A DNA stretch of 64,000 nt from an uncultured Pelagibacteraceae bacterium (GCA_902609705.1 CACLSX010000001.1:17271-81270), one strand, 5' to 3'; numbered from the stretch's first letter, positions 13,318-56,214 are shown. Made by a program: numbers and translations. The notes: generated by a model not told the origin, from the letters alone.

Positions 13318-14643
13318 TTAACAGTCTAGAGTATTCTGTCTTTCCCATTTTGTAATTGGTTTGGACTTATCAAAATTTTCGTTATCATTAAAATCTTTTA
13401 ATTCCGAAGTTCTTAACTTGACATAACTTTTAATTACTTCTTTTCCAAATGCTTTATTCATTTCTTTATTATTTTCAATTTTATCAAGAGAATCTTTTAG
13501 TTCATTTGGTAATTTAGAAAGGTTTGGATATTTTTTATAATCCTCATACATATTACAAAAAAGAGGTTTGCCAGGATTAATTTTTTTACTTAATCCCTCT
13601 ATTCCTGCAGCTAATACACTAGCTTGAAGTAAATAAGGATTTGCGGATCCATCCATAAGTCTTAATTCAAATCTTCCCGGATCAGGAACCCTTATCATAT
13701 GTGTACGGTTATTTCCTGTATATGATATACTGCTTGGAGACCATGTTGCACCAGATTTTGTTGGTGCAGCATTTATTCGTCTGTAACTATTTATTGTTGG
13801 ATTAAAAAAAGTAGATAAGGATGAAGCATGTTTCATGATGCCTCCTAAAAAGTTATAAGCTGTCTTGCTTAGCCCAAGCTTATCATGTTTATCAAGAAAG
13901 ATATTTTTCTTTCCTTTCCATAAAGAAATATGTGCATGACATCCGTTACCAGTTAAATTTTCAAAAGGTTTTGGCATAAATGTTGCTCTGAAATCATGCT
14001 TTTCTGCAATAGTTTTAACCATAAATTTAAAAAAAGTGTGTCTATCAGCAGTTTTTAGACAATCTGAATAATCCCAATTCATTTCAAATTGCCCATTAGC
14101 ATCTTCGTGGTCATTTTGATAAGGACCCCATCCCATTTCAATCATACAATCACATATTTCTTTTATAAGATCATATCTTCTCATTAATGAAGACTGGTCA
14201 TAACAAGGTTTAGATTGAGTATCTCTATTATCTGCAATTGCGTTCCCATCAGGAGAAATCAAAAAATACTCACACTCCACACCTGACTTCATGCTATATC
14301 CCAATTCAGATAATTTTTTTATTTGTTTTTTTAACATTACTCTTGGTGAAGCATCGACTGGTTTACCATTCATCCACAAATCTGAAGCCAACCAACCAAC
14401 TTCTTTATTCCATGGTAGTTGAATTAAACTGTCAGGATCAGGTATTGCAAACATATCAGAATCAGCTGGTGTCATATCTAGCCAGGCCGCAAATCCAGCA
14501 AATCCAGCACCATTTACTTGCATATCTTTTATTGCATGAGCAGGAACCAATTTTGATCTTAAGACACCAAATAAATCTACAAAACTTATCAAAAAATATT
14601 TAATTTTTTTTTGTTTTGAAATTTTAAATAAATTTTTTGCCAT
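13318..14643 (-). CDS. gmaS: Gamma-glutamylmethylamide synthetase (GlnT/type III GS-like)
   Basis: YFLISFVDLFG..RSKLVP, GAGFAGFA.WLDMTP, SKPCYDQ, DHEDANGQFEMNW, SGATWSP; methylamine gene context. Confidence 0.85.
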   Translation of the reverse strand: MAKNLFKISKQKKIKYFLISFVDLFGVLRSKLVPAHAIKDMQVNGAGFAGFAAWLDMTPADSDMFAIPDPDSLIQLPWNKEVGWLASDLWMNGKPVDASPRVMLKKQIKKLSELGYSMKSGVECEYFLISPDGNAIADNRDTQSKPCYDQSSLMRRYDLIKEICDCMIEMGWGPYQNDHEDANGQFEMNWDYSDCLKTADRHTFFKFMVKTIAEKHDFRATFMPKPFENLTGNGCHAHISLWKGKKNIFLDKHDKLGLSKTAYNFLGGIMKHASSLSTFFNPTINSYRRINAAPTKSGATWSPSSISYTGNNRTHMIRVPDPGRFELRLMDGSANPYLLQASVLAAGIEGLSKKINPGKPLFCNMYEDYKKYPNLSKLPNELKDSLDKIENNKEMNKAFGKEVIKSYVKLRTSELKDFNDNENFDKSKPITKWERQNTLDC

Positions 14644-14660
14644 CTAATAACGTAACACAA

Positions 14661-14825
14661 TTATTTAAAAAATGATAAAAAGAAATCTTTGTAATAAATT
14701 AAATTTACACCAATAATAATTAATATCGCTATAATTACTCCATACTTTGCTTTTGGCCATGCAAGACGTGCCATTTTGCTAGGAGTTTTATTTTCATTTT
14801 GATTATTTTCTTCAGAATTTTGCAT
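14661..14825 (-). CDS. Small single-TM membrane protein (54 aa)
   Basis: Polar N-terminus then GVIIAILIIIGVNLIYY; start placed at ATG 14825 because the 14852 ATG lies inside a terminator hairpin. Confidence 0.5.
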   Translation of the reverse strand: MQNSEENNQNENKTPSKMARLAWPKAKYGVIIAILIIIGVNLIYYKDFFLSFFK

Positions 14826-14826
14826 T

Positions 14827-14862
14827 AAAAAAAAGAGGGCACAGTATTTCATGCGCCCTCTT
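14827..14862 (-). terminator. Rho-independent terminator after amt and the small partner gene
   Basis: Minus strand AAGAGGGCGCA-tgaaatac-TGTGCCCTCTT followed by a T run. Confidence 0.8.
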
Positions 14863-14869
14863 AAAAGTT

Positions 14870-15091
14870 TTAACCGTCTGTTATATTGCTTTTCCAGTCG
14901 TTAGCACTTGGTTTTTTTCTGACAATTGCATTCATCTTACCATCTTCTTGTTTAGATGAAATAACATGCCAGCCAACCCAAATAAGAATTGCTATTATAA
15001 CTAGCACTCCTTCCGAACCAACACCTGGATAGACAGATCCTTGTACCTCAGAGGCACTTAAATGATCTATCCAATTTGATACTGTTGCCAT
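14870..15091 (-). CDS. Small membrane protein co-transcribed with amt (73 aa)
   Basis: Strong SD AGGAGG right after the amt stop; one TM segment (VLVIIAILIWVGWHVI). Confidence 0.75.
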   Translation of the reverse strand: MATVSNWIDHLSASEVQGSVYPGVGSEGVLVIIAILIWVGWHVISSKQEDGKMNAIVRKKPSANDWKSNITDG

Positions 15092-15104
15092 TTACATACC
15101 TCCT

Positions 15105-16505
15105 TTATCTACTGGCCGAGACTACAGCTTTTTCGTCTTCTTTAGCCTCTTCCATAATTGTATAGTCAAGTCCTGCAAGTTCTACTTCTCTTGGTATTCT
15201 TAATTTACCCATTCCATGAAGAACTTTTGCAATTATATATCCAGGAAGCATACCTAGTACAAAAAACATTATTATTGCACCGATAAACATTCCAAGAGGA
15301 TTAATTGCTGCATAATTAGTTCCATCCCACATAGCTCCAACACTGTATCCAGATGAAGGATAACCATTTAAAACGAAACCACATATTACAAGACCAACAA
15401 ATCCAGCATAACCATGAACAGCTACCGCTCCAACCGCATCGTCGATTTTATATTTTTTCTCGACCCAGTAATGCATTTTGTAAGCTATAACTACTCCGAT
15501 CATACCGATTATCATTGATTGTATTGGATGATATAAATCATTACCTGCAGATGCACATATTATTCCCGCAAGTCCTGATGAATAAGTCCAGAAAGGATCT
15601 CCCTTCGAGACCACATACCCTGCTAACAACCCTCCAGATAACGACATTAAAAAGTTCATCGTTATTCCACTAAGTGTGGTGGGAGTTAGGTAGATGTTCG
15701 TCGCAGTAAAGAAAGTTACACCTTCCATACCATATTCTGGTCCAAGATCATAAATCGGAACATTACATGCTGCATAAAAGCCCCAAAAACCTGTATAGAT
15801 TAAGAATAATCCAACAGTCACTAACCAAGGATTTCTTGGCCCAATGTTTCTTGGTTCTCCGCTAGATGAAAATTTTCCAATTCTTGGTCCTAGAACAATT
15901 AGAACACCTAAGGCAAAACCTCCGGCAATTGCATGAATTACTCCGGAAGCATAAGCATCGTGATATCCTAATATTTTTAACATCCATCCATCAAAATGCC
16001 ATCCCCACGAAGCATCTATTGTCCAGAAAACAGATCCAATTGCAATTGCAAGTATTCCAAATGCAAAAGTAGTTATCCTTTCAATAACCGCTCCAGATAC
16101 AATTGAAGCTGCAGTCCATGAAAATAATAAAAAGGCTGCCCAGAAGACACCCATTATATGATCATTAAGATTTACGGCCATCAATGCATTTGTAGGATTA
16201 GCAAGATCATTTCCACCAAATCCACCTCCAAGAACTAGACCAGTACTTTCGGTCATAATCGAAGGAGCTAATCCGGGTCCTGTTGGAAATGCCCAGTATA
16301 TCCACCAACCAAAGAAAAACCATGTGACTGTTACCAGTGGTATCAGCATTGTATTTTTCATAAGAGTGTGTTGGTGATGTTTGTAACGAGATGCCCCAAC
16401 TTCATACATACAGAAACCCACGTGGATCAAAAACATAAGAACCACAGTTACCCAATAGTAAAATTCTGTAAATAAGGTTGTGAGAGCACCTAATTGATCA
16501 GTCAT
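15105..16505 (-). CDS. amt: Amt-family transporter, divergent (candidate methylamine permease)
   Basis: GF.MYE.G, MKN, IVSGA..ER, LGPRIGKF, DDAVGAVAVHG; about 11 TM segments; SD AGGAG. Confidence 0.88.
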   Translation of the reverse strand: MTDQLGALTTLFTEFYYWVTVVLMFLIHVGFCMYEVGASRYKHHQHTLMKNTMLIPLVTVTWFFFGWWIYWAFPTGPGLAPSIMTESTGLVLGGGFGGNDLANPTNALMAVNLNDHIMGVFWAAFLLFSWTAASIVSGAVIERITTFAFGILAIAIGSVFWTIDASWGWHFDGWMLKILGYHDAYASGVIHAIAGGFALGVLIVLGPRIGKFSSSGEPRNIGPRNPWLVTVGLFLIYTGFWGFYAACNVPIYDLGPEYGMEGVTFFTATNIYLTPTTLSGITMNFLMSLSGGLLAGYVVSKGDPFWTYSSGLAGIICASAGNDLYHPIQSMIIGMIGVVIAYKMHYWVEKKYKIDDAVGAVAVHGYAGFVGLVICGFVLNGYPSSGYSVGAMWDGTNYAAINPLGMFIGAIIMFFVLGMLPGYIIAKVLHGMGKLRIPREVELAGLDYTIMEEAKEDEKAVVSASR

Positions 16506-16533
16506 ATTTCTCTCTCCTATTAATAGTTAATAG

Positions 16534-16562
16534 ATTCTATGAAATTTTTTTTACGCTGACAA
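16534..16562 (-). promoter_or_regulatory. Putative sigma70 promoter for amt
   Basis: TTGTCA-N17-TAGAAT on the minus strand, about 30 nt upstream of the ATG. Confidence 0.55.
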
Positions 16563-16621
16563 TTTTATTTTATTTATAAAAAGTAGAAGTTAATAATTAT
16601 TTTAACAACTTGAAATTGAAA

Positions 16622-17032
16622 TTAGAATTTTAAATATGCTTTTTTAAGGTCAACCAGAGGATGATTCGGGGACATTTGAAACTTTACCAATAATTCTCTA
16701 GCTATCATATCTCTATCTTGCTGATTATTAGGTAATTTTATTTTACTTGGTATCGTTACCCAACCATTAGCATTTCTATCAAAAACAGCGGGTCTATTTT
16801 CTTCATAACCCATATGAACATCTTCTAACCAATTAAGATCATCCCAACCCATAGCTTCTATATATTTTTTTAAAAATGGAGTTAGTCGACTATAGTCAGG
16901 CAAAAGATTAACGTCATATCGGTAGCCAATTGTTTGGCCAATCATTTTTTCTCTTGCAGTTTCTTTTTTTTTTCCTAATTGACCTTTGATCTCTTTTGAT
17001 TTGACTTTTTTCTTACCTTTTTTCTTTGGCAT
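16622..17032 (-). CDS. Hypothetical protein (136 aa) at the end of the glxBCD-like operon
   Basis: 8 nt downstream of glxD; Lys-rich N-terminus, globular core (WDDLNWLEDVHMGYE); no family recognised. Confidence 0.7.
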   Translation of the reverse strand: MPKKKGKKKVKSKEIKGQLGKKKETAREKMIGQTIGYRYDVNLLPDYSRLTPFLKKYIEAMGWDDLNWLEDVHMGYEENRPAVFDRNANGWVTIPSKIKLPNNQQDRDMIARELLVKFQMSPNHPLVDLKKAYLKF

Positions 17033-17040
17033 ATTTGCTA

Positions 17041-18432
17041 TTAGATTTTATGGAAATCTTTAACTCCTACTGTATGATTTGTTCCTGCAAGAGGTACTTT
17101 AGCTAAAGCAGAAGCCTCCATTGTTAATGCTGCCATATCTTCTGGTTCTAGAGAGTGAATATTTGTTTTTCCACATGCTCTAGCCAACAATTGAGCCTCC
17201 AATGTCATCGCATGCAAGTAATTATAAACTCTTAATGCTGCATCATCAGGATTTAATCTTTTTCTTAATTTTGGATCTTGAGTAGCTACTCCTACTGGAC
17301 ATCTACCGGTATGACAGTGATAGCAATGACCCGCGGGAACACCCATTTCTTTTTCAAAATTAGATTCTGGTATTTCTTTATTGCAATTTAATGCCACCAT
17401 CGCGCCTGTTCCGATTGCAATTGCGTCTGCACCAAGTGCTAAAGCTTTAGCCATATCTGCTCCATCTCTAACACCACCTGCATAAATTAAAGTTACTTTT
17501 CCAGTTTTACCTACATCATCCAAAGCTCTTCTTGCTTCTCTAATTCCAGCAATTCCCGGGATACCTGTGTTTGCAGCTGCAATGTGTGGTCCAGCACCTG
17601 TTGAACCTTCCATTCCATCAAGATAAATTGAATCTGGATCACATTTTGCTGCCATCCTTACATCATCATATACTTTAGCAGCTCCAAGTTTTAATTGAAT
17701 TGGCACTTTGTTTTTTGTTAATTCTCTAAGCTCTTGAACTTTTAAAGCTAAATCATCTGGACCCAGCCAATCAGGATGTCTTGCTGGAGATCTTTGATCA
17801 ATACCTGCAGGTAGCGATCTCATTTCTGCAACTTGGTCAGTAACTTTCTGACCCATCAAATGACCACCCATTCCAACTTTTTGTCCTTGTCCAATAAATA
17901 CCTCAATTCCATCAGCTAGTTGTGCGTGGTGTGGATTAAAACCGTATCTTGATTGTATGCACTGATAAAACCATTTTTCTGAATATCTTCTCTCATCTGG
18001 TATCATTCCACCTTCACCTGAACATGTTGCGCTACCAGCCATTGTAGCACCTCTAGCTAATGCAGTTTTTGCTTCATAAGATAAAGCTCCAAAACTCATT
18101 CCCGTAATGTAAACTGGAATATCAAGTTCAATTGGATTTTCACATCTTGGACCAATAATAGTTTTGGTCTCACATTTTTCTCTGTAACCTTCAATAACAA
18201 ATCTTGTTAATGTACCTGGCAAGAAAACTAGATCATCGAAAGTAGGTATCTTTTTCATCAAAGCCATTCCTCTCATTCTGTATCTTCCTAATTCCGCTTT
18301 GATATGAATGTCGTCCATAACTTCTGGAGTAAAAATAGCGTTGTGTCCTAACAAACTTTTGTTTCTTGAAGCTATTCCATTACCATTAGAATGTCCGTTT
18401 GACTTTCCATTACCATTTTTTTTCTTTGCCAT
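17041..18432 (-). CDS. glxD: FMN-binding glutamate-synthase-like subunit (GlxD/MgsC-like)
   Basis: GMSFGALS, SGEGG, SRYG, GQG.K.G.GGHL.G.KV, IDQRSPARHPDW.GPDDL, CYHCHTGRCPVGVATQD. Confidence 0.85.
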   Translation of the reverse strand: MAKKKNGNGKSNGHSNGNGIASRNKSLLGHNAIFTPEVMDDIHIKAELGRYRMRGMALMKKIPTFDDLVFLPGTLTRFVIEGYREKCETKTIIGPRCENPIELDIPVYITGMSFGALSYEAKTALARGATMAGSATCSGEGGMIPDERRYSEKWFYQCIQSRYGFNPHHAQLADGIEVFIGQGQKVGMGGHLMGQKVTDQVAEMRSLPAGIDQRSPARHPDWLGPDDLALKVQELRELTKNKVPIQLKLGAAKVYDDVRMAAKCDPDSIYLDGMEGSTGAGPHIAAANTGIPGIAGIREARRALDDVGKTGKVTLIYAGGVRDGADMAKALALGADAIAIGTGAMVALNCNKEIPESNFEKEMGVPAGHCYHCHTGRCPVGVATQDPKLRKRLNPDDAALRVYNYLHAMTLEAQLLARACGKTNIHSLEPEDMAALTMEASALAKVPLAGTNHTVGVKDFHKI

Positions 18433-19287
18433 TTAAATTGCTCCTTTTTTTTCTGTAGGTTCAAGAGCATCGTAATTCCAAAGTTTTTTTCCTGCTACAA
18501 CTTTGGTCATCTTAGAAACATCGAAGTTTTCTCCGATCTCTGCAACCTTTAATTTTCTTTTAAGCCAGTCTTGATCTGAATCAGTTAACTCAGCTTCGAC
18601 AGCATCACTACCAAATGATCCAATTTTTCCACCTACAAAAATTGTCCCATCATACATAGAATCTCCTAAATTTATTCCAACATCTCCAAGAATAATAATT
18701 CGCCCTCTCTGCATCATAAAACCTGTAAAAGCGCCAGCATCTCCGCCAATAATTATTGTTCCACCTTTTTGATCAATTCCTGTTCTGGCACCTACGCTTC
18801 CTTTGCATATCAGATCTCCACCTCTAATTGCCGCACCAAAACATGAACCTGCATTTTTTTCAATTACTACTTTTCCTGCCATCATATTTTCTGCACATGA
18901 CCATCCCACTCTTCCATTAATTCTAACAATAGGACCATCCATTGATCCACACCCAAAGTACCCCAAACTACCTTCAAATATTAAATTTAATTTATTGAGA
19001 ATTCCAACTCCCAAGCTATGTTTTCCCTGTGGGTTCTTTATTACAATGGTTCCGTATCCATCTTTCATTAATTCATCAATTTTTTTATTTGCTTCACGAC
19101 AATCCATGTTCTTAACGTCAATTTCAGTTCTTTTGTTAAAATCTACATCATATGTCCCAAAGTAATAAAAATTCTCAGCCTCATCTGGATTAAAAAATTT
19201 TTGTTGTGTTTTTCCAGTTAAGACCTCTGTATGAAGTCCCATTGATTGAGCTTTACTTTTTTTTTCTGATGTTTTTAAATTTGCCAT
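18433..19287 (-). CDS. glxC: GXGXG beta-helix subunit (GlxC/MgsB-like)
   Basis: Repeated G-x-x-G-x-x-x-G turns (GRVGWSCAENMMAG, GSVGARTG, GDAGAFTG). Confidence 0.85.
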   Translation of the reverse strand: MANLKTSEKKSKAQSMGLHTEVLTGKTQQKFFNPDEAENFYYFGTYDVDFNKRTEIDVKNMDCREANKKIDELMKDGYGTIVIKNPQGKHSLGVGILNKLNLIFEGSLGYFGCGSMDGPIVRINGRVGWSCAENMMAGKVVIEKNAGSCFGAAIRGGDLICKGSVGARTGIDQKGGTIIIGGDAGAFTGFMMQRGRIIILGDVGINLGDSMYDGTIFVGGKIGSFGSDAVEAELTDSDQDWLKRKLKVAEIGENFDVSKMTKVVAGKKLWNYDALEPTEKKGAI

Positions 19288-20216
19288 ACTTTAACTTCTC
19301 CATCAAAAGGATCATAAGTTTCGATTTCTTGTGGTAATATTGATCTTATTGCAATTTCCTCTGACCCCATTGCAACTAAATCATCTGACTCATACAATAC
19401 TAGTGGTTTTGCAGCCATTGTATCTTTCGCCATTCCTAAGCTATCTTTTGTAGCAACAAAATAAGTAAATACCCCATCTAAACCTACGAGAGACTCTTTC
19501 ATTCCCTCTTCTAATGTAGCTCCATTTCTCATTTTTTCTGCAAGATATACAGCGATTAATTCAGAGTCACATTCTGACATAAATCTCATGCCCTTGTTTT
19601 CCAATACTCTTCTATTATTCCAATAGTTTGTTAATTGTCCATTATGAACGACTGACACATCACTAAAAGGATAACCCCAAAATGGATGAGCAGATTTAAT
19701 ATCCACTCCCGACTCTGTTGCCATCCTAGCGTGACCAATTGCATGTGTCCCGACAACTTTATCTAAATTATATCTGTTACAAACAACTTCAGCGTTTCCT
19801 AGATCTTTAATTACTTCTAGAGATTTTCCCATAGATAATATTTCTACACCTTCAACACTTTCTATTTTTTGAGAAAATTCCATTAAATCTTTGTCATACT
19901 GAATTTCATATCGTAATGAATAAGGAAGAATTCTATCTTCTTTTATCACTTTAGCGCCTAGCTCAGAAAGATAAGAATCAACAATTTTCTTTCTTTCGTC
20001 ATAAACTGATACATCTTCTTTTACTGAAGAACTTCCCTCTGCAACATTTTCACCAACCTTAAATCGCATGATGAAATTTTGACCATCAGTTTTTCCGTAT
20101 AGAGCGTATCCAGTTGAGTCTTCTCCTCTATGCTTTAATGCTTGAAGCATACCTTGAAGTTCAAAACCAACGTTTGAAGTATTTCCTCTATGAATTAATC
20201 CTGCAATCCCGCACAT
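19275..20216 (-). CDS. glxB: Class II (Ntn) glutamine amidotransferase subunit (GlxB/MgsA-like)
   Basis: N-terminal MCGIAG, HRG.DSTG, GHARMATES, AHPF, HNGQLTN, DSE. Confidence 0.87.
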   Translation of the reverse strand: MCGIAGLIHRGNTSNVGFELQGMLQALKHRGEDSTGYALYGKTDGQNFIMRFKVGENVAEGSSSVKEDVSVYDERKKIVDSYLSELGAKVIKEDRILPYSLRYEIQYDKDLMEFSQKIESVEGVEILSMGKSLEVIKDLGNAEVVCNRYNLDKVVGTHAIGHARMATESGVDIKSAHPFWGYPFSDVSVVHNGQLTNYWNNRRVLENKGMRFMSECDSELIAVYLAEKMRNGATLEEGMKESLVGLDGVFTYFVATKDSLGMAKDTMAAKPLVLYESDDLVAMGSEEIAIRSILPQEIETYDPFDGEVKVWQI

Positions 20217-20233
20217 ATAATTTCCTTATTAAA

Positions 20234-21703
20234 TTATGGTAAACAATCCAGATAAGTATCAAGATCCCATTGTGTTGTTGCACCCAAGAATTTTTCCCAC
20301 TCATCTCGTTTGTACCAATTAAATACTTTATACATTTCATCTGGCATTGATGATTTTATTACTTCATCTTCCGCCAATCTATCTAAAGCTTCACCTAAAC
20401 TTAGTGGAAGTTTTTTTACATCTTTACCAGCTTTTTGAGCTTCATATATATTTCTAGACTCAGGTTTGGCTGGTTTCATTTTTTTAGATATTCCTTCATC
20501 ACAAGCTTTAAGTAATGCTGCACCTAATAAATATGGATTATGCATAGAGTCAACTGATCTGTACTCGAATCTACCTGGAGCAGATACTCTTAGACCACAT
20601 GTTCTATTTTGATATCCCCAGTCAGCATATACTGGTGCCCAAAAACCTTGATCCCATAATCTTCTATATGAGTTCACTGTCGAAGAACCAATTGCTGTTA
20701 AAGCTGGTAAGTGTTTCATTATCCCTGCAATTGATTGTAATCCAATCTTTCCAGGCAATTGCATATCTTTAGTATCTGGCATGAAAGTATTAGTTCCACC
20801 GGATACATAGCTAAAAACTTCTTCTACACCTGGAAGTTTTTTGTTACCCAATTTGTTTACTGATACTTTTCCACCTTTCCACAAAGACATGTTGGTATGA
20901 CATCCACTTGCTGAAACTCCCATAAATGGTTTAGTCATAAAGCAAGCTATAAGATTATGTTCTCTTGCTACTTGAGCACAAATTTGTCTATACGTAGACA
21001 ATCTATCAGCATTTCTTAAAACATTATCAAATGTCCAGTTAAGCTCTAATTGACCAGGAGCATCTTCATGGTCACCTTGGATCATATCAAGACCCATCGC
21101 TTTTGCGTATTCAATAACCTTCATAAACACAGGTCTTAATGATTCAAATTGATCAATATGATAACAGAAAGGTTTTGAGAAACCTTGTCCAGTTGGAGTT
21201 CCGTCAGGATTTTTTGTTAACCACATCATTTCAGGCTCTGTTCCAACTCTTAATTCTAATCCATGTTTCTTTTTGAACTCATTCATGAAAATTCTAAGAT
21301 TACCTCTGCAGTCACTTGTTAAATGACCACCTGGATTTTTTCTTTCTTCTCTATTTCTAAAACATGTAACAAAAACTCTTCCAACTCTCTTATCCCAAGG
21401 CAATTGAACAAAAGTTTCTGGATCAGGTATTCCTACCAATTCCATAGCTTCTGGGCCGTAGCCAATATAATTATTATGACGATCTAAAAATAAGTTTGCT
21501 GTTGCTCCATAAACCAATTGAAAACCTTTTTCTGCAGTTCTTTCCCAGTGGTCTGCTGGTATTCCTTTTCCAACAACTCTTCCAGTTACTGAAATAAATT
21601 GATAATAGATATAAGTAATTCCTAATTCGTTTATTTTTTCTCTAACCTTTTTTACGAGTTTAGCTCTACCTGGTTGGTTTACGTGTTTTTCAAGATCCGT
21701 CAT
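20234..21703 (-). CDS. Second glutamine-synthetase-like gamma-glutamyl ligase
   Basis: GTEPE, DHEDAPGQLELN, KPF...SASGCH, NSYRRL, NRT, RFEYR; flap region reads GFWAP. Confidence 0.85.
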   Translation of the reverse strand: MTDLEKHVNQPGRAKLVKKVREKINELGITYIYYQFISVTGRVVGKGIPADHWERTAEKGFQLVYGATANLFLDRHNNYIGYGPEAMELVGIPDPETFVQLPWDKRVGRVFVTCFRNREERKNPGGHLTSDCRGNLRIFMNEFKKKHGLELRVGTEPEMMWLTKNPDGTPTGQGFSKPFCYHIDQFESLRPVFMKVIEYAKAMGLDMIQGDHEDAPGQLELNWTFDNVLRNADRLSTYRQICAQVAREHNLIACFMTKPFMGVSASGCHTNMSLWKGGKVSVNKLGNKKLPGVEEVFSYVSGGTNTFMPDTKDMQLPGKIGLQSIAGIMKHLPALTAIGSSTVNSYRRLWDQGFWAPVYADWGYQNRTCGLRVSAPGRFEYRSVDSMHNPYLLGAALLKACDEGISKKMKPAKPESRNIYEAQKAGKDVKKLPLSLGEALDRLAEDEVIKSSMPDEMYKVFNWYKRDEWEKFLGATTQWDLDTYLDCLP

Positions 21704-21731
21704 TCTTCCCCCTTTGAATTTTCAGATCAAA

Positions 21732-21760
21732 AAGGTAACTGAAAAAAAAACGTTTGTCTA
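21732..21760 (-). promoter_or_regulatory. Putative sigma70 promoter for the GS2-glxBCD operon
   Basis: TAGACA-N17-TACCTT on the minus strand; SD-like AAGGGGG before the ATG. Confidence 0.35.
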
Positions 21761-21770
21761 CTTAGATAAA

Positions 21771-23099
21771 TTAGCTCCAAGGAAACGGACTGTTCGATGT
21801 CGGATGAAGTTTTCCTTTTTCATATCTATCGAACCTGAACGGTTTTAATAATTCACTTTCTTGACCTAAAATTTCTTGTGCAACAAGGTGTCCAACACCT
21901 ATCATTTTATAACCATGATTTGCATCTGCAATCATGTAAACATTTTCAAAAAATCTATCAAATATTGGGAATGAATCTGGAGTTAAACATCCCAATCCTC
22001 CTGATGGTCCCTTTCTATACAAATGAGATTTACCAACAAAACGTTTTTGAATATGTGCTAGTGCTGAAGTCCACATGTCAGAAAATTTATCGGTAGTTTG
22101 ATATTCTGGAGAGTCTATTCCATATGGATCAACATTAACTTCATCAAAATGTTTTTGAACAATATAAGGTGATGTTCCACCTTGAACTCCCAAACCTTCA
22201 ATATCAGGTTTATAATAAATACCCCATAAGTCTTCTGTAATTATTTTACCATCTTTATCAGAATAAAGTGGTGCATCTGTATCAACATGAATTACTGGAG
22301 GTGGTTTACCTTCATTAGTTTTTAAATAATCTGCATCTACACCCAATACACCTTCTTGTAAAAACCAGTACTTCCACATTTCAACTTCATGCATTTTTCC
22401 ATTTTTAGCATCTTTTATGTTTGTTGTTTTTGGTAACTCCAACATATTCCAAAAATCTCTTACCCATGGTCCAGCTCCAATAACTACCTGATCACAATCA
22501 ATTGTTCCTTTGTCTGTAACTACACCAGTAATTGCATTGCTATTACTTCCTCTTTTAAAACCTGTAACCTTTACTCCTTTATGAACGTTTACACCGTTGG
22601 AATTTGCTTTTTTCTCTAATGCTTTAATTGAATCTTTATTAAATGCGTATCCACCTTTCTTTTCATGTAAGACTGATGTAATTCCTTTTGCTTGCCAATC
22701 ACTAAAAATTCCTTGCATATATTTCATGCAATCTTTTTCACCTTCTATAAATTCTGACTCATATCCAATAGCTTTTTGTTGTTCGTAAATACTTGCAACA
22801 TCTTTATGCATTACTTCTGGAGAAATTTGCATATAGCCGACAGCATTATATTTAAATGCCTCTGGATCACTCTCCCAAACACTAACTGAATGAGCCATTA
22901 ATTCTCTCATTGCTGGTTGAAAATAATTGTTTCTAACAACTCCACATGCAATTCCACTTGCACCTGCAGCAGTGTCTTTCTTTTCTAAGACAACTACATC
23001 GTTTGGATTTTTATATTTTTCGGAAAGTTTCCAAGCAGTACTTAACCCGTGAATTCCTCCACCAATTATGACAACTTTTGCTTTTGTCGGTAACGACAT
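21771..23099 (-). CDS. FAD-dependent oxidoreductase (DAO/sarcosine-oxidase-beta/DMG-dehydrogenase-like, no GcvT domain)
   Basis: IIGGGIHG dinucleotide motif, GASGIACG, GAGPW, TPD..P, HGYK. Confidence 0.85.
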   Translation of the reverse strand: MSLPTKAKVVIIGGGIHGLSTAWKLSEKYKNPNDVVVLEKKDTAAGASGIACGVVRNNYFQPAMRELMAHSVSVWESDPEAFKYNAVGYMQISPEVMHKDVASIYEQQKAIGYESEFIEGEKDCMKYMQGIFSDWQAKGITSVLHEKKGGYAFNKDSIKALEKKANSNGVNVHKGVKVTGFKRGSNSNAITGVVTDKGTIDCDQVVIGAGPWVRDFWNMLELPKTTNIKDAKNGKMHEVEMWKYWFLQEGVLGVDADYLKTNEGKPPPVIHVDTDAPLYSDKDGKIITEDLWGIYYKPDIEGLGVQGGTSPYIVQKHFDEVNVDPYGIDSPEYQTTDKFSDMWTSALAHIQKRFVGKSHLYRKGPSGGLGCLTPDSFPIFDRFFENVYMIADANHGYKMIGVGHLVAQEILGQESELLKPFRFDRYEKGKLHPTSNSPFPWS

Positions 23100-23188
23100 G
23101 TTTGAACTTTAATTTTTTAACAAAGGAAAGAATATAATAATTTTTATATATAATTTATATAAATTCTAAATATTTATGAGATTTTTAT

Positions 23189-23539
23189 TTAAAAACTCAA
23201 ATTTTTGAGAGTTTTTAAATATTCGTTAAATTCATTTACAAAATTCTGTGTGGGTAAAACATGCTTTTTTCTATGGTCATTTCCTGTTTTCTCGAGATAA
23301 AAAAATTCTTTATCACATGCTTCTTTGATCATTAGTGCAGATTTCGGTCTAGAGGTTTTGAAAAGTCTAGTCTTAAGTTCTTCGACAGATAAGTTTTCAT
23401 TTAACTTATAGGAATTCATTACAATTAGCATCATATGATAATGTGAAGGAGATTTTCTGAAAAAGTAATTACTGGATGTATGGGATAGTTTCATTTGATC
23501 TTCCCAAAATTCCAGTAAATCTTTTGATGATTTTGACAT
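23189..23539 (-). CDS. Putative MarR-like winged-helix protein
   Basis: 116 aa; LSVEEL...SRPK helix pair and wing motif DHRKKHVLPT; TAATG-coupled to tdm. Confidence 0.55.
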   Translation of the reverse strand: MSKSSKDLLEFWEDQMKLSHTSSNYFFRKSPSHYHMMLIVMNSYKLNENLSVEELKTRLFKTSRPKSALMIKEACDKEFFYLEKTGNDHRKKHVLPTQNFVNEFNEYLKTLKNLSF

Positions 23540-25878
23540 TAAGATTTTACACGTGTTTTTTGAGGATCATAATGTGGAAAACCAACAACTTTGGCAGGTA
23601 TTCTTTTTTGATGTCCGTCAATTTTCCCAACTTCAACATTCGTACCTATATTTGAATGACCTACATCAATTCTACACAATGCAATATTTTTATTCAAAGT
23701 AGGAGATAGACATCCACTTGTAACTACGCCAACTTGGGATCTTCCAATATGAACGCAATCACCGTGATTAGCTTTTTCTTTGCCTACAAGTTCTAATCCA
23801 ACTAATTTCTTTTGCGGATTTTCTTTTCTCTTTATTAATGCGTCTTTACCAATGAAATCTGCTGTTTTTGTTTTTAAAGGAACCGTAAATCCAACACCAG
23901 CTTCAAATGGGTCAACTTGGCCGTCAAATTCATTACCAAATAATATTAGACCAGCTTCAATTCTTAATAAATCTAATGCTCCAAAACCAGCAGGTATTAA
24001 CCCTTCATCTTTGCCAGCTTCCATAAGCACATCCCAAACTGCTGGCGCATCAGTGGGATGACACCATATTTCATATCCTAATTCACCGGTGTATCCAGTT
24101 CTAGAAACAATTAATGGAATTCCACTAAGCTCTTTTACTCTGCAGATTGTAAACCTAAACCATTGTAATTCTGAAATAGAAGGTTGTGTTGGTGGAGTAA
24201 AAATAAACTTTTCTAAAATTTTTCTACTATTTGGTCCTTGTAGAGAAATATTATTTATTTGATCAGTAGAGTTTTTAATTAAAACATTAAACTTTTTCTT
24301 TTTTGCCTGATCTTTTAACCACTCACCTGCATATTCATCACCACATACCCATCTAAATCCATGATCATTCATTTTTAACAATGTTCCATCATCAAACATA
24401 GAACCATTTTCATAACACATCGAAGAATAAACAATTTGTCCAACTGATAATTTTTTAACATTTCTAGTTAAAGTATAGTCCATTAATTCTTCTGCATCCG
24501 GACCTAATATTTCAAATTTTCTTAAAGAAGATAAATCAATTAAAACTGCTTTTTCTCTACACGCTGTATATTCATTTATTACTCCGTGTTTAGTGTAATC
24601 ATTGGGCAACCAATATCCTCTAGCATCAACAAAGTTTCTTGTTAGCTTAGAAGTTCTTTCATGAAATCCTGTATTTTTTGTTAGTTTTAGTTCTGAGTCT
24701 GGTTTCATTCTAAATGCAAAAGATTTTGTAAATTCTCTTTTTTTTTCATAAGTTCTAACAAAAATATCTGTAGGGTTCCATGAATTACATGGATCTATAT
24801 CACTTGGACAGGCTGATGTTCCGCAGGTTAAATCTTTTAAAGCTCTTAATATTACATAATCTCCAGGTCTAGCAAATGATTCATCAGAAAGCACAGTATT
24901 TAAACCTCCTGCCGAAGTATTAAAAAATAAATTTATAGCGTGCCATCCTTTTTGTCTATTAACTCCAAAATTTTCCATAGCACCACTTAAGTTATCTGAG
25001 CAATTTGGATGTCCAAAATAACCAGCGTCTTCGTAGTACTTTGATGTACAAGCAAGATTAAAAGTGTCATGTCTACCAACAGTATCTCTTATTACCTCTA
25101 CTAAAGGTTCATGATCTGTATCATAAAATTTCGAATACAATCCCGGTCCTGGAAAAGTATTACCCATAAAGGTCCTGGTTGTTTGCCAATCTAAACCTTT
25201 CTCTACACCTTTACCTAACTTAGCTGTATCGAAAGCAACAAAATCTGAACATTGTCTACCAGTTGGACAAATTATTTGAATATAATCTCCTTCTTTAACT
25301 TCAAAAGAAATCGCTGATTGTTTTGCAATATTTTTTTCGTCTAGAGGATCAAAAATTGGATCTGGAATTATTCTATGTTCTTTATAATCAACAATATTAT
25401 TTCTTTTAATAAATAAAGTTAGTTCAGTAGGAGGATTTTGTTCATGAACCAACATATCATTACCAGGTGCAGAAAAAATGCAATAACATTTGTCTTTTGA
25501 AGTTATTTTAATCTTTTCTCCTGGTGGAGTGTCTTTATCAAAAAGGATAGAAGATTTAGATTTTGCAATTTTAAGATTTCTTTTTTCTAATTGGCGCAAA
25601 GCAATTTTCGAACTTTCTTCATTTCTATTTAAAATTTTAATTATATCATTTTCTGATTTAGATGATTTTAAATTTAAAATTGATGGATCTGAATTTCCAT
25701 CAGAATTAAAAACAACTACTTCACAAATTTGATTTCCTTCATTATTAATAATTTCAATTTCATCATCAGGAAAAACCTGAACTCCTGTTAATCCACCGCC
25801 ATTAACTACATATCTTTCAACTCCAGGTGGCAAAACATTTAAACCAGGTTCATTTATTCTTAAATTTTCTTCTAACAT
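23539..25878 (-). CDS. tdm: Trimethylamine N-oxide demethylase (DUF1989 + GcvT fusion)
   Basis: GRQCSDF, ACTSKYYE..GY.GHPNCSDN, SACPSDIDP.N.WNPTDI, then GcvT motifs DLSSLRKFE, SRTGYTGELGYE, LRIEAG; divergent from tmoX. Confidence 0.9.
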   Translation of the reverse strand: MLEENLRINEPGLNVLPPGVERYVVNGGGLTGVQVFPDDEIEIINNEGNQICEVVVFNSDGNSDPSILNLKSSKSENDIIKILNRNEESSKIALRQLEKRNLKIAKSKSSILFDKDTPPGEKIKITSKDKCYCIFSAPGNDMLVHEQNPPTELTLFIKRNNIVDYKEHRIIPDPIFDPLDEKNIAKQSAISFEVKEGDYIQIICPTGRQCSDFVAFDTAKLGKGVEKGLDWQTTRTFMGNTFPGPGLYSKFYDTDHEPLVEVIRDTVGRHDTFNLACTSKYYEDAGYFGHPNCSDNLSGAMENFGVNRQKGWHAINLFFNTSAGGLNTVLSDESFARPGDYVILRALKDLTCGTSACPSDIDPCNSWNPTDIFVRTYEKKREFTKSFAFRMKPDSELKLTKNTGFHERTSKLTRNFVDARGYWLPNDYTKHGVINEYTACREKAVLIDLSSLRKFEILGPDAEELMDYTLTRNVKKLSVGQIVYSSMCYENGSMFDDGTLLKMNDHGFRWVCGDEYAGEWLKDQAKKKKFNVLIKNSTDQINNISLQGPNSRKILEKFIFTPPTQPSISELQWFRFTICRVKELSGIPLIVSRTGYTGELGYEIWCHPTDAPAVWDVLMEAGKDEGLIPAGFGALDLLRIEAGLILFGNEFDGQVDPFEAGVGFTVPLKTKTADFIGKDALIKRKENPQKKLVGLELVGKEKANHGDCVHIGRSQVGVVTSGCLSPTLNKNIALCRIDVGHSNIGTNVEVGKIDGHQKRIPAKVVGFPHYDPQKTRVKS

Positions 25879-31235: not shown

Positions 31236-32195
31236 ATGAGAAAAATTTTAATAATAGGCGGTGGCGCAATGGGATCTGCTTTTACTTTTCCATGTATAGA
31301 TAACAAAAATGAAGTAACTATCACAGAGCCTTACAATAAAACTTTTATTAAAAATTTGTCTTCAAAAAAGAAATATCATTCTAGTTTAAAAATAAATTTA
31401 CCCAATAAATTAAAATACAAAAAATATTCAACTCATTTGTTAAAGAATAAATATGATTTAGTTGTTGTTGCGTTAAGTTTATCAGGAATAAATTTTATTA
31501 GTGAAGAATTTAGAAAATCAAACATCAAAAGCCCAATTCTTATTCTTACTAAAGGTTTAAAGTATGAGAAAAAAAAACAGAAAATTTTTACTATTTCAGA
31601 GGATATAAAGAAAACTAATAAAAATATAAATGTTTCAGTTTTAAAAGGACCTTGCTTAGCAAAAGAACTTTCAAATAAAAAACAAACAAGTGTGATTGTT
31701 GCTAATAAGAATATCAAAACCGCAAAAAAAATTTGTAATATGATAACTACAAAATACTATTTAACCGAAACTTCGAAAGATGTTATTGGAGTTGAGATCT
31801 GTTCTTCAATTAAAAATATTTATTCAATGATTATTGGGGCTGGTGATAGTTTAAATATGTCTTCAAGTTTATTTAAAAAATCTATAAATGAGATGATATA
31901 TATTACTAAATATTTTAAAGGAAAAATTGAGACTGCTCTTGGATTGGCTGGAGTTGGAGATCTATACGTCAGTGCTGCTGGTGGTAGAAATAGTAAAATG
32001 GGAAGTTACTTAGGGCAAGGCTATACATTTAACAATGCTAAAAGAAAATTTATGACCAATGAAACTGTAGAGGGAGAGCAACTTGCAAGAGAAATTGCTC
32101 CATTTGTATTAAAAAAAATTCAACAAAAAAAAATCCCTTTGATGACAAAATTAATTAAATCTATAATTAATAATAAAAAATTAATATTAAATTAA
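31236..32195 (+). CDS. NAD(P)H-dependent glycerol-3-phosphate dehydrogenase family, divergent
   Basis: IIGGGAMG, LTKG, GP.LAKE, KNIY, GLAGVGDL, GRN, TVEG. Confidence 0.75.
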   Translation: MRKILIIGGGAMGSAFTFPCIDNKNEVTITEPYNKTFIKNLSSKKKYHSSLKINLPNKLKYKKYSTHLLKNKYDLVVVALSLSGINFISEEFRKSNIKSPILILTKGLKYEKKKQKIFTISEDIKKTNKNINVSVLKGPCLAKELSNKKQTSVIVANKNIKTAKKICNMITTKYYLTETSKDVIGVEICSSIKNIYSMIIGAGDSLNMSSSLFKKSINEMIYITKYFKGKIETALGLAGVGDLYVSAAGGRNSKMGSYLGQGYTFNNAKRKFMTNETVEGEQLAREIAPFVLKKIQQKKIPLMTKLIKSIINNKKLILN

Positions 32196-32197
32196 AA

Positions 32198-33283
32198 ATG
32201 GCTAGTATTAAAATAGATAAAATAAATAAGTATTTTGGAAGTACACACGTTATCAAAGATGTTTCTCTAGATATAAAAAGCGAGTCTTTTACTGTTCTTG
32301 TAGGACCAAGTGGTTGTGGTAAATCTACAATTTTAAGAATGATTGCTGGTTTAGAAGAAATTAACTCTGGCACAATATCTATTGACGATAAAGTTGTTAA
32401 CGATCTGCCACCTAAAGAAAGAAATATTGCAATGGTATTTCAATCTTATGCTCTTTACCCTCATATGACAGTATTTGATAATATGGCTTTTGGTTTAAAG
32501 ATTGAAAAAAAATCAAAAGAAGAGATAGAGCAAAGAGTAATGGAGGCTGCTAAAATTCTACAAATAGAAGAGTACCTAGAGAGAAAACCTAAACAATTAT
32601 CTGGAGGACAACGTCAAAGAGTGGCTATAGGTAGAGCTATTACAAGAAAACCAAAAGTTTTCTTATTTGATGAACCATTATCTAATTTAGATGCAGCTCT
32701 AAGAGTACAAATGAGAGTAGAATTGGCAAAATTACATGATCAACTTAATGCAACAATGATTTACGTAACTCATGATCAAACTGAAGCCATGACACTTGCA
32801 AATGATATTGTTGTATTGGATCAAGGTATAGTTTCACAAAAGGGATCACCCATGAACTTATATAATAACCCAGATAATTTGTTTGTTGGGGGTTTTATCG
32901 GATCTCCAAAAATGAATTTTATAGATAGTAAAATTTTAAGTAAAAGTTCAAAGAGTTCTGAAGTAGATATAATGGGGACTGGAAAGTTAAATGTACCAAA
33001 AATTTCTGAGAATACTCAAGAAGGGGATAGTATAAAAATTGGAATAAGACCAGAGCACTTAATATTAAACGCAGATTCAGATTCTTTGTGGGAAAGCAAG
33101 GTTTTCGTCGTAGAAAAATTAGGGTCAGGAACATATTTATATTTGGAGAAAGAGGGAGATCCTCTTGTTGTACAAACTGATGGAGACACAAATATTAAAG
33201 TAGGTGACACTGTTAAAATAGGTTTTGATCCATTTCGTTGCCATTTATTTGATAATAAAGGTATTTCTTTTAAAAATTCCTAA
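32198..33283 (+). CDS. MalK-type sugar ABC ATPase
   Basis: GPSGCGKST, VFQSYALYPHM, LSGGQRQR, DEPLSNLDA, FIGSPKMN. Confidence 0.93.
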   Translation: MASIKIDKINKYFGSTHVIKDVSLDIKSESFTVLVGPSGCGKSTILRMIAGLEEINSGTISIDDKVVNDLPPKERNIAMVFQSYALYPHMTVFDNMAFGLKIEKKSKEEIEQRVMEAAKILQIEEYLERKPKQLSGGQRQRVAIGRAITRKPKVFLFDEPLSNLDAALRVQMRVELAKLHDQLNATMIYVTHDQTEAMTLANDIVVLDQGIVSQKGSPMNLYNNPDNLFVGGFIGSPKMNFIDSKILSKSSKSSEVDIMGTGKLNVPKISENTQEGDSIKIGIRPEHLILNADSDSLWESKVFVVEKLGSGTYLYLEKEGDPLVVQTDGDTNIKVGDTVKIGFDPFRCHLFDNKGISFKNS

Positions 33284-33395
33284 ATCAATCTCAGGTAGTA
33301 TTGTGTAAATTACATACTTGTTATTCTTCTTTTAAATGTTCATTATGTGTTAATTTTTAAATAACTTTAGAAAACAAGAAAAAAGAGGGGAATAT

Positions 33396-34724
33396 ATGTT
33401 TAAAAATATATTAATAACAATCTCTGCAATAGCTTTTGTTTTTAATTCAATCGCATTTGCAGATATCAAATTCTGGACGACAGAAACTCAACCAGCAAGG
33501 ATGGCTAAGCAAGAAGAGATGGCAAAAGCTTTTGAAGCCAAAACTGGAATTGGAGTTGAAGTTATTCCTATTGATGAAAAAGATCTAGGAACAAGAGCTA
33601 CAGCGGCAGCGGCAGCGGGAGATCTTCCTGATGTAATTTATCATACACTACAGTATGTATTACCATGGGCTGAAGCAGGAATTTTAGACGTTGATGCAAA
33701 TAATGATATCGTTAACTCACTTGGAAAGAAAACTTTTGCTCCAGGTGCTTTAAAGATGGCTAAAAAAGGTGGCAAAATTGCTGCTGTACCAGTAGATGGC
33801 TGGACGCAAATGGTTGTATACAGAAAAGATTTATTTGCAGCTGCTGGTTTAGAACCACCAACTACATACGCAAACATCGAGAAAGCAATAGATGCTTTAT
33901 CTAGTAATGATATGTTTGGATTTGTTGCGGCAACTAAAACTGACGAAAACTTTATGAGTCAAGTTTTAGAACATGTCATGCTTGCAAACGGTGTTAATAT
34001 TGTAAAAAAAGGTGGAACAAAAAAACAAGGAAGAGCTTTAAAAAATTCTTTACAGTTTTATAAAAAATTAGCTAAAGCTAGTCCTCCAGGAGAACTTTAT
34101 TGGAAACAATCAAGAGAACTTTATTTTGCTGGTAAAACACCAATGATAATATGGTCACCATTTATTATGGATGAATTAGCTGGTTTAAGAGACTCAGCTC
34201 CACCAACAATTAATAGCGACCCTACTTCACCAGAGTTGGCATCTAAAACTGGTTTTATAACTAATTTTAGTGGACCAAATAATGTAAAAGGTGCAGCTTG
34301 GGCTGATGTTAGATACTTTGGTGTAACTGCAGATGCAGATACCGATGAAGCTAAACAGTTTATTCTTTATTCAATGGATGAAGGATACACAAGTACTTTA
34401 TCTATAGCGCCAGAAGGTAAGTTTCCTGTAAGAAGAGGTAATGCGAGTGATCCAAATGCATTTACAACAGCTTGGAGTAAACTACCTGTTGGAGTTGATA
34501 GAAAAGCTCCTTTAACAGATCTATATTCTGCAGATGTAATAAATAACATTGTTGCTGGTTTAGATACTGCTAACAGATGGGGAGTAAAAGAAGGCGAACT
34601 ATCTAGAGCATCTAAAATTATTAACAATAAGTTTATAAATAGAATCACTAGACAATATATTGATGATCAATTGACGCTAGATGAAGCAGTAGATGAAATT
34701 AATACTGTGCTAGCTAGCTTCTAG
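33396..34724 (+). CDS. Carbohydrate ABC substrate-binding protein (CUT1)
   Basis: Signal peptide; AGDLPDV, YRKDLF..AGLEPP; SD AGAGGGG. Confidence 0.88.
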   Translation: MFKNILITISAIAFVFNSIAFADIKFWTTETQPARMAKQEEMAKAFEAKTGIGVEVIPIDEKDLGTRATAAAAAGDLPDVIYHTLQYVLPWAEAGILDVDANNDIVNSLGKKTFAPGALKMAKKGGKIAAVPVDGWTQMVVYRKDLFAAAGLEPPTTYANIEKAIDALSSNDMFGFVAATKTDENFMSQVLEHVMLANGVNIVKKGGTKKQGRALKNSLQFYKKLAKASPPGELYWKQSRELYFAGKTPMIIWSPFIMDELAGLRDSAPPTINSDPTSPELASKTGFITNFSGPNNVKGAAWADVRYFGVTADADTDEAKQFILYSMDEGYTSTLSIAPEGKFPVRRGNASDPNAFTTAWSKLPVGVDRKAPLTDLYSADVINNIVAGLDTANRWGVKEGELSRASKIINNKFINRITRQYIDDQLTLDEAVDEINTVLASF

Positions 34725-34738
34725 TAATTTAAAAAATT

Positions 34739-34775
34739 AAAAAAAGCGGGTAATATTAATTATCCGCTTTTTTTT
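34739..34775 (+). terminator. Hairpin/terminator between SBP and permease
   Basis: AAAAAGCGGGTAAT-atta-ATTATCCGCTTTTT then T run, ending right at the permease ATG. Confidence 0.75.
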
Positions 34776-56206: not shown

Positions 56207-56214
56207 AGTAATTA

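Follow-up and report, generated by a model that had tools for sequence, protein, structure and literature searches.

A variant of the N-methylglutamate pathway as the likely best candidate for the missing dimethylamine step of SAR11

How do SAR11 bacteria consume the dimethylamine (DMA) that the demethylase Tdm releases from trimethylamine N-oxide (TMAO)? This step is stated to be missing in PMC5520151, PMC3870248 and PMC8918994, and the accessible parts of these papers suggest only SAR11_1304 or an unnamed isoenzyme. The question is raised by a stretch of 64,000 nucleotides from an uncultured Pelagibacteraceae bacterium (GCA_902609705.1 CACLSX010000001.1:17271-81270), here designated as the window, and in particular by the gene block at positions 13318..25878 that extends from tdm to gmaS. 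A sequence-only reading of the window had proposed that this block fills the DMA gap by glutamylation. Comparative genomics supports the proposal, since neither dmm nor dmd genes, for the known DMA monooxygenase and dehydrogenase, were found in the assembly and the gene set never occurred together with Dmm in the tdm-positive genomes tested. Its core, in the following termed the module, consists of the glutamine synthetase (GS)-like ligase GS2, a second GlxBCD trio and an orphan protein of 136 residues. The genomic comparison makes it highly probable that the module replaces Dmm as a DMA route, and among the candidates for the missing DMA step of SAR11 this likely variant of the N-methylglutamate pathway ranks first.

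Mutual exclusion of the module and Dmm

All open reading frames (ORFs) from tdm to gmaS are located on the minus strand with intergenic gaps of -13 to 116 nucleotides. The ORF calls bear out the predicted order on one strand, i.e., tdm, a winged helix-turn-helix (wHTH)-like gene, a flavin adenine dinucleotide (FAD) oxidoreductase, a GS-like ligase, glxB-C-D, the 136-residue protein, Amt and a small transmembrane protein. The gene tdm (23539..25878; NF053776 with 1105 bits vs. a cut-off of 1100) is the source of DMA and belongs to the context rather than to the core. The latter comprises GS2 (20234..21703), a GmaS-like amine:glutamate ligase of the SAR11_1305 type with 30% identity to GmaS, the class II amidotransferase subunit GlxB2 (19275..20216; PF13522), the GXGXG subunit GlxC2 (18433..19287; PF01493), the flavin mononucleotide (FMN) glutamate-synthase-domain subunit GlxD2 (17041..18432; PF01645) and, directly after glxD2, the orphan (16622..17032), which has no Pfam or NCBIfam match. 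The three Glx2 subunits are paralogs of MgsA, MgsB and MgsC, respectively. The FAD oxidoreductase (21771..23099; PF01266), which is of the SAR11_1304 type by gene order, is an accessory of the core. Gene order and annotation identify the block as the SAR11 methylamine island, which corresponds to SAR11_1303 to 1317 of strain HTCC1062 as described in the accessible parts of PMC3160333, PMC3870248 and PMC2704228. Two glx sets are documented for HTCC1062: SAR11_1308 'gltB2' and SAR11_1313-1315. The second of them is the top match to MgsABC of Methyloversatilis universalis, and the window holds only the SAR11_1308-type set.

The source assembly is of the SAR11 type, has a size of 1.02 Mb and a GC content of 30%, and consists of 61 contigs with a completeness of 83%. 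The following negative results therefore mean 'not found' and not 'absent'. DmmA (NF041259) was not found in this assembly, with a match in the positive-control genome G082, and the same holds for the DmmC-type heme domain PF11927, a family that was matched in 38 of 301 other genomes. The search for PF00724, the N-terminal FMN barrel of the trimethylamine (TMA)/DMA dehydrogenase, returned no candidate in the assembly and matched 13 of 14 controls. The DmmA, heme and reductase subunits of DmmABC were thus found neither in the block nor elsewhere in the assembly; the sequence-only reading had seen no DmmABCD monooxygenase or TMA/DMA dehydrogenase in the window.

PF11927 alone was rejected as a Dmm marker. 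Most of its 38 matches represent another group with about 30% identity to DmmC, a reductase and DmmA lie beside it in only four genomes, and none of six weak matches is located in a tdm-positive genome. This other group (L149-L178), which lacks an accompanying reductase or DmmA and often stands beside ispZ and ftsY, is an observation in its own right: counting by PF11927 alone overestimates Dmm.

Profiling of the block against tdm-positive, dmm-negative genomes, as proposed in the sequence-only reading, revealed that the module and Dmm are mutually exclusive in two samples. The first consists of 331 genomes of a single family (f83), one per genus save one, whose gene content points to Rhodobacteraceae; 93 of them have Tdm matches, 80 over the cut-off. 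With GlxD2 called at an identity of at least 75%, these 80 genomes contain DmmA in 46 cases, GlxD2 in 27, both in none and neither in seven. The resulting Fisher p of 3e-15 is overstated, because related genomes are not independent, and for this reason a RpoB+RpoC tree was established that covers 60 of the 73, namely 26 genomes with the module and 34 with Dmm. The two states require eight changes on this tree compared with a mean of 19.8 after shuffling. The trait is clustered, yet it has been swapped several times (at least eight changes) without overlap. GlxD2 is located at most 13 kb from tdm in 23 of the 27 genomes and on separate contigs in the other four, and the module mostly lies inside the tmm-tmoXWV-tdm cluster.

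GS2 mirrors this distribution. Its orthologs, called at an identity of at least 66%, are present in 30 of the 34 DmmA-negative and in none of the 46 DmmA-positive genomes of the family. The four misses are G403, whose contig begins just before glxB, G630 with a partial dmmC, G490 with dmmD-like genes near contig ends, and G463 with tdm near a contig end. The second sample comprises 301 Alphaproteobacteria (class sample), 23 of which are Tdm-positive: 17 harbor GlxD2 only, three dmmDABC only and none both, and the remaining three with neither include two with a below-cut-off Tdm and one with tdm at a contig end. The DmmA, GlxD and GS2 searches of the 80 genomes left out the family f32 (10 of 22 genomes tdm-positive) and the 13 below-cut-off genomes of f83; of these, G292 and G221 are covered by the class sample.

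The conservation of the block in Pelagibacteraceae was investigated in the best-ranked 80 of at least 577 relatives, with GS2 as the basis of the ranking. The order FAD oxidoreductase, GS2 and glxB is kept in all 80 loci, the remaining genes come next as far as the contigs extend, and 77 loci reach tdm. Compared with the window, the proteins of L019-L080 have mean identities of 95% (GlxD2), 94% (orphan), 86% (flavoprotein), 83% (GmaS) and 78% (Tdm); GS2 reaches 96%, a value biased by its use in the ranking. Outside SAR11, GlxD2 orthologs are 75-85% and those of the orphan 70-84% identical, and the recurring unit is composed of a divergent GntR gene, the flavoprotein, GS2, glxB, glxC, glxD, the orphan and a protein of about 190 residues on the opposite strand, often accompanied by Amt or an amino-acid permease. 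Flavoprotein matches were detected in 34 genomes of the class sample, and GS2 lies within the fetched region of 23 of the 27 other full-length flavoprotein orthologs with at least 54% identity. In a phylum sample of 301 genomes GS2 was found in three, all of the same class, and searches of plasmids gave no match for the flavoprotein or the orphan.

Two further genes accompany these loci. The protein of about 190 residues, which has no Pfam or NCBIfam match, follows the orphan in most non-SAR11 module loci (e.g., L117:17062-17682; L114:16234-16815) and was not found in the assembly of the window. A nitrilase-family amidase is located behind the orphan in many f83 modules (e.g., L213:9351-10202; L209:9304-10158); its nearest family is the deaminated-glutathione amidase, with a score below the cut-off, and one may speculate that it could repair a deaminated gamma-glutamyl amide.

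Predicted functions of the module proteins

GS2 is neither a typical GmaS nor a typical glutamine synthetase. It forms a clade separate from GmaS and scores below the cut-offs of TIGR03105 (GmaS; 294.5 vs. 469.6 bits) and TIGR00653 (GlnA; 236.5 vs. 429 bits); W355 replaces the glutamate of the Glu flap, and a separate glutamine synthetase is encoded on contig C7. The amine-site and catalytic residues of RhGmaS are Y147, Q175, D177, E179, E186, N188, K30' and R312 together with a Trp at the Glu flap (PMC7948447, accessible part). The counterparts of the amine site in GS2 are Y181, Q209, D211, E213, E220, N222 and K46, with the Trp at the Glu flap and the catalytic Arg also being kept. These positions are conserved in at least 95% of 54 GS2 and 15 GmaS sequences, and G231 corresponds to Ala in GS2. 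Since every amine-site and catalytic residue of RhGmaS is retained, GS2 is likely an alkylamine:glutamate ligase and not a glutamine synthetase. RhGmaS turns over DMA poorly, with a Km of 16 mM compared with 27 uM for monomethylamine (MMA; Table 1 in the available part of PMC7948447). For GS2 it is reasonably probable that DMA is acted upon first. Entry of DMA via GS2 is the simplest solution for a gene set that replaces Dmm, does without an oxidase of its own in 13 genomes and always includes GS2; the ligase represents the constant gene of the system, whether the trio or a P450 stands beside it.

The GlxBCD2 trio shows the MgsABC-type layout of split class II amidotransferase, GXGXG and FMN-domain genes in this order, and GlxB2 retains the N-terminal catalytic Cys (Cys2 motif). 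The earlier designation of the trio as glxBCD/mgs-like is correct with regard to the domains, but it is not the canonical mgsABC. With identities of 32/34/52% to the canonical SAR11 trio of locus L017 it is, as judged by identity bands, not the ortholog of the gmaS-linked trio, and a canonical mgsABC trio was not found in the assembly of the window. Four cysteines of GlxD2 (C350, C370, C373, C378) are invariant in 52 sequences. The orphan has no distant family among the best 150 of 294 representative hits, all of which are 54-99% identical. Its structural model (pLDDT 73) has no Foldseek match at E <=0.001, a best VIA Z of 2.9 and unnamed Atlas neighbors, which demonstrates neither a known nor a new fold. 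Judged by its position, the orphan is possibly an accessory subunit.

The relation of the module to MMA utilization is documented by its co-occurrence with canonical genes. Among the 27 module genomes of the class sample, 12 also contain GmaS and an MgsC-type paralog with 50-54% identity, six contain no GmaS over the cut-off, and in nine GmaS is present without an MgsC-type paralog. Given the first two of these groups, the module is not a simple MMA substitute. Canonical MgsC is encoded in 12 of the 68 SAR11 loci that span amt to gmaS; both trios thus occur together in 12 SAR11 loci, and they do so in other genomes as well. GlxBCD2 probably also takes gamma-glutamylmethylamide (GMA) from GmaS, which would explain why gmaS is kept and the canonical mgsABC is missing in most SAR11 loci. 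Aside from these two trios, G218 and G221 contain glxBCD genes of a third type (about 38/38/52%), which are accompanied by a GS-like gene of their own and a GntR (L205:5718-12037; L206:3076-15075). In G221, G248 and G082 a divergent tdm type that scores below the cut-off is adjacent to another ABC transporter.

The flavoprotein of the SAR11_1304 type was modeled with a pLDDT of 90.7, and its best structural matches are SoxB, MSOX and DMGDH with 16-20% identity (TM-score of 0.70-0.72 to SoxB and MSOX). It is not SoxB itself, as it reaches 82.7 bits vs. the TIGR01373 cut-off of 529 and adjoins GS2, with no adjacent delta, alpha or gamma genes in the window and soxBDA nearby in a few other genomes. 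R56 and K398 are invariant in 44 sequences and align with the Arg and Lys of SoxB, a pair that presumably binds the substrate carboxylate. Free DMA or a distal amide methyl group is therefore a less probable target than an N-methyl alpha-amino acid, and the flavoprotein is regarded as a predicted N-demethylase of an N-methylated glutamate. In 13 genomes it is present neither in the module locus nor in genome-wide searches, which had no internal positive control but used a query that matched strongly in the search of 301 genomes. The flavoprotein is hence an optional partner of the module.

The proposed pathway would start with the joining of DMA and glutamate by GS2 at the expense of ATP, yielding gamma-glutamyl-dimethylamide. 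GlxB2 would then cleave the amide, and the FMN subunit would exchange the alpha-amino group of glutamate for DMA, thereby forming N,N-dimethylglutamate and ammonium; N-methylglutamate synthase chemistry is the model for this amine-exchange step. The flavoprotein or, where it is missing, Mgd/Sox would convert dimethylglutamate to N-methylglutamate and a C1 unit. The final conversion of N-methylglutamate to glutamate and methylene-tetrahydrofolate by SoxBDAG/Mgd would follow a published proposal. Of the two routes sketched in the sequence-only reading, the one via dimethylglutamate agrees best with the data, and it is improbable that the flavoprotein demethylates the gamma-glutamyl amide, in view of the 13 module genomes without flavoprotein and its N-methyl-amino-acid oxidase fold. 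The module likely consumes DMA without oxygen, as judged from its predicted enzymes, and the chances of the complete sequence from GS2 via gamma-glutamyl-dimethylamide and N,N-dimethylglutamate to flavin demethylation appear evenly balanced.

A P450 variant and alternative explanations

A second arrangement was detected in G573, G591, G567 and G456 (L312-L315) and on a metagenome contig (L322:2987-12422), where an Amt-GS2-P450 operon is located beside tmm. The four genomes are tdm-positive, have neither DmmA nor the trio, and also harbor GmaS and a canonical-type MgsC. In this variant the P450 would demethylate either the amide or the free amine and leave the rest of the pathway to the canonical Mgs. 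Amt-GS2-P450 may represent a third route for DMA; the assembly of the window yielded no match for the P450. The nearest outside relatives of GS2 (38-53%; plasmid loci of Ruegeria, Paracoccus, Gordonia and Streptomyces) adjoin P450s that are 50-54% identical to that of the variant. A GS-like ligase beside a P450 is also described for the clusters of PipA/MorA-type P450s (CYP151), but those act on cyclic amines where known. The pairing of both genes in a secondary-amine degrader is reported in the accessible part of PMC9477822.

Several points weigh against the route via dimethylglutamate. Lidbury 2017 found no evidence that SAR11 oxidizes DMA, and neither dimethylglutamate nor glutamyl-dimethylamide was found in the literature listing as a bacterial catabolic intermediate. 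No tdm match was obtained for 10 of the 27 module genomes of the class sample; these cells must therefore obtain DMA from elsewhere, or else the module has another substrate. The DmmA-positive genome G369 encodes a GS2 relative of the P450-linked subtype with 53% identity, and GS2 is missing beside four flavoprotein orthologs, one of which belongs to the Dmm genome G292. Under nitrogen limitation of HTCC1062 the flavoprotein is up and SAR11_1305 and SAR11_1308 are down to ~0.67 (available tables of PMC3870248), opposite changes which indicate that they are not regulated as one unit. A role of the trio for MMA is real, because 56 of the 68 SAR11 loci lack canonical MgsC and nine class-sample genomes have GmaS without an MgsC-type paralog, and the MgsC-type band of 50-55% may be a mixture of the canonical and the third type seen in L205 and L206. 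The notion that the four cysteines of GlxD2 represent new redox chemistry was dropped, as some canonical MgsC keep the same residues. Finally, the morpholine P450 oxidizes the free amine according to a work cited in the accessible part of PMC9477822, which would place GS after the oxidation in the P450-linked relatives.

The alternative that survives best, albeit unlikely, is that GS2 glutamylates DMA and that the amide is then N-demethylated to GMA, by the P450 in the variant and by the flavoprotein or the trio plus orphan in SAR11, before it enters an Mgs trio. This corresponds to the first of the two routes in the sequence-only reading. P450s can hydroxylate amide N-methyl groups, the four genomes of the variant possess both GmaS and the canonical-type MgsC, and the scenario would explain that a single trio serves both ligases in SAR11. 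It is difficult to reconcile with the 13 module genomes that have no flavoprotein and no P450 in the fetched locus, with a flavoprotein fold that is typical of amine and not of amide oxidases, and with the result that the P450 was not found in the assembly of the window.

Direct oxidation of free DMA to MMA by the flavoprotein, the FMN/Fe-S trio or a P450, with GS2 and the trio then capturing MMA, appears rather unlikely. An amine demethylase function of SAR11_1304 was put forward as a speculation by Smith 2013 and is mentioned by Lidbury 2017, and Gao 2022, who saw gmaS induced by TMAO, proposes a Dmm isoenzyme; the morpholine P450 uses the free amine as its substrate. The flavoprotein is dispensable, however, and keeps the Arg/Lys pair aligned with that of SoxB, and a GS2 that merely ligates MMA leaves the split of 30/34 vs. 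0/46 genomes unexplained, since both groups make MMA.

It is quite unlikely that the module represents a paralogous MMA (N-methylglutamate) pathway or a route for another amine, with dmm-less tdm cells releasing DMA and the exclusivity being a matter of history. Each part is indeed a paralog of GmaS, MgsABC or MgdA, some database entries label the flavoprotein as methylglutamate dehydrogenase subunit A, the module occurs without tdm in the 10 genomes mentioned above, the trio is the sole Mgs in most SAR11 loci, and Lidbury 2017 argues in its accessible part for a DMA bottleneck. History alone has to contend with zero DmmA overlap across at least eight switches and with the 12 of 27 genomes that also have GmaS and the MgsC-type paralog. 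Moreover, HTCC1062, which has no dmm, shows weak growth with TMAO as its only source of nitrogen (PMC8918994, section 12). Mere trapping or detoxification of DMA as gamma-glutamyl-dimethylamide for storage or release, with GS2 as the one invariant gene and a nitrilase-family amidase often following the module outside SAR11, is very improbable, because a redox set (trio or P450) follows GS2 in every locus with the downstream side seen and TMAO supports growth as a nitrogen source.

Neighboring genes, known systems and biological meaning

The remaining genes of the block, which encode the HTH-like protein, Amt, the small membrane proteins and GmaS, are judged here to be neighbors of the core. 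The ORF of 116 residues (23189..23539, minus strand as all of the following) is kept in SAR11 loci and was seen only in these; other genomes have a divergent GntR-FCD gene upstream instead. Its previous label as wHTH found no Pfam match, and ESM Atlas neighbors with HTH_27 or HTH_24 in 11% of the members offer a lead to a possible HTH regulator. Amt (15105..16505; PF00909) is a channel of the SAR11_1310 type and is followed by two small ORFs instead of the single transmembrane protein previously noted, one of 73 residues with a single hydrophobic, membrane-spanning stretch (14870..15091) and one of 63 residues, also with one hydrophobic stretch (14661..14852), which has homologs in a subset of SAR11 loci and whose start is uncertain because its 5' end overlaps a terminator-like hairpin. 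Orthologs of this Amt with 65-67% identity stand directly beside dmmD in G082 and G094, and homologs of the 73-residue ORF (33-39%) are located behind Amt in G190, G082, G094 and G083. Both are therefore general to methylamine use, as they also occur beside dmmDABC (L183:9045-10600; L197:6873-8459). The block ends with gmaS (13318..14643), the canonical MMA:glutamate ligase (TIGR03105 with 618 bits vs. a cut-off of 470; best PDB match 7CQL, E 1e-169).

The block is covered by four metatranscriptome assemblies, each of which belongs to a different study, but their contigs are uninformative on strand or level. The number of promoter-like sites does not exceed chance, and the spacer between the orphan and amt folds no better than shuffled sequences (z 0.39), so that the riboswitch-like element reported for HTCC1062 was not confirmed. 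As initially described, the window contains tmm, fhs, soxB, tdm and gmaS, all over their family cut-offs, together with soxD/A/G and tmoXWV-type ABC genes. Between tmoV and tmm (31236-38477) lie a sugar ABC transporter and genes resembling glucosylglycerate hydrolase and glycerol-3-phosphate dehydrogenase. A tightly coupled trio at 53586-56823 encodes an M19-peptidase-like protein, a protein of 550 residues without family match and a DUF3726 protein. The genes at 59852-62031 for a DinB plus FGE-sulfatase protein and a histidine methyltransferase, presumably egtB/egtD-like, form a pair suggesting ergothioneine synthesis. In six other loci (L238:421-3772, L237, L241, L242, L320 and L322) a cassette of a PRK07581-type alpha/beta hydrolase, a GMC oxidoreductase and a class I amidotransferase-like gene adjoins tmm or tdm.

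Among the known systems, the N-methylglutamate pathway (GmaS, MgsABC, MgdABCD; Ruegeria pomeroyi, Methylocella silvestris, Methyloversatilis universalis; SAR11_1313-1316) has several features in common with the module: the amine ligase is of the GS fold and carries the GmaS active site, the glutamate-synthase-like trio is split into three genes of the same order, and there is a SoxB-like flavoprotein. The module differs by the additional orphan and the low identities of GS2 (only 30%) and the trio, its flavoprotein is optional and lacks adjacent mgdBCD in the window, and it occurs together with the canonical set but not with Dmm. DmmDABC (R. pomeroyi SPO1579-1582; accessible part of PMC5520151) has the same place in metabolism as the module and is often surrounded by the same genes, i.e., tdm, tmm and this type of Amt, but there is no homology: the core of the module has no heme or reductase subunit, and its predicted cost is paid in ATP and glutamate rather than in O2 and NADPH. 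The flavoprotein of the window is matched by gene order and annotation to SAR11_1304, annotated as 'monomeric sarcosine oxidase' (PMC3160333 and PMC3870248, in part available); in print this is the sole suggested amine demethylase, here it is the optional partner of a larger core. An assignment of DMA to GS2 or the second trio was not found in the searched literature, whose scope excluded supplements and most subscription papers, and the available parts of PMC13390433 and PMC12661815 contain nothing on a DMA role of the module.

The idea of a marine DMA bottleneck that feeds aerosols rests on SAR11 making DMA without dmm (accessible part of PMC5520151). The most far-reaching version of our proposal would combine a dedicated DMA:glutamate ligase, an O2-independent dimethylglutamate route, a four-subunit synthase that includes the orphan, a second branch with P450 in some genomes, and a module that serves SAR11 and numerous other marine Alphaproteobacteria as their principal DMA sink and thereby removes the proposed DMA bottleneck. 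As a whole this is tentative, and we place its chances somewhat short of even. The module is a cloneable candidate with GS2, glxD2 and the orphan as marker genes, a dmmA mutant of R. pomeroyi exists (PMC13390433, available part), and the presence of the module in Alphaproteobacteria with larger genomes should make it easier to manipulate than in SAR11. If the proposal is true, counts of DMA degraders that are based on dmm alone would be too low, and a ligase for secondary amines would represent new enzymology.

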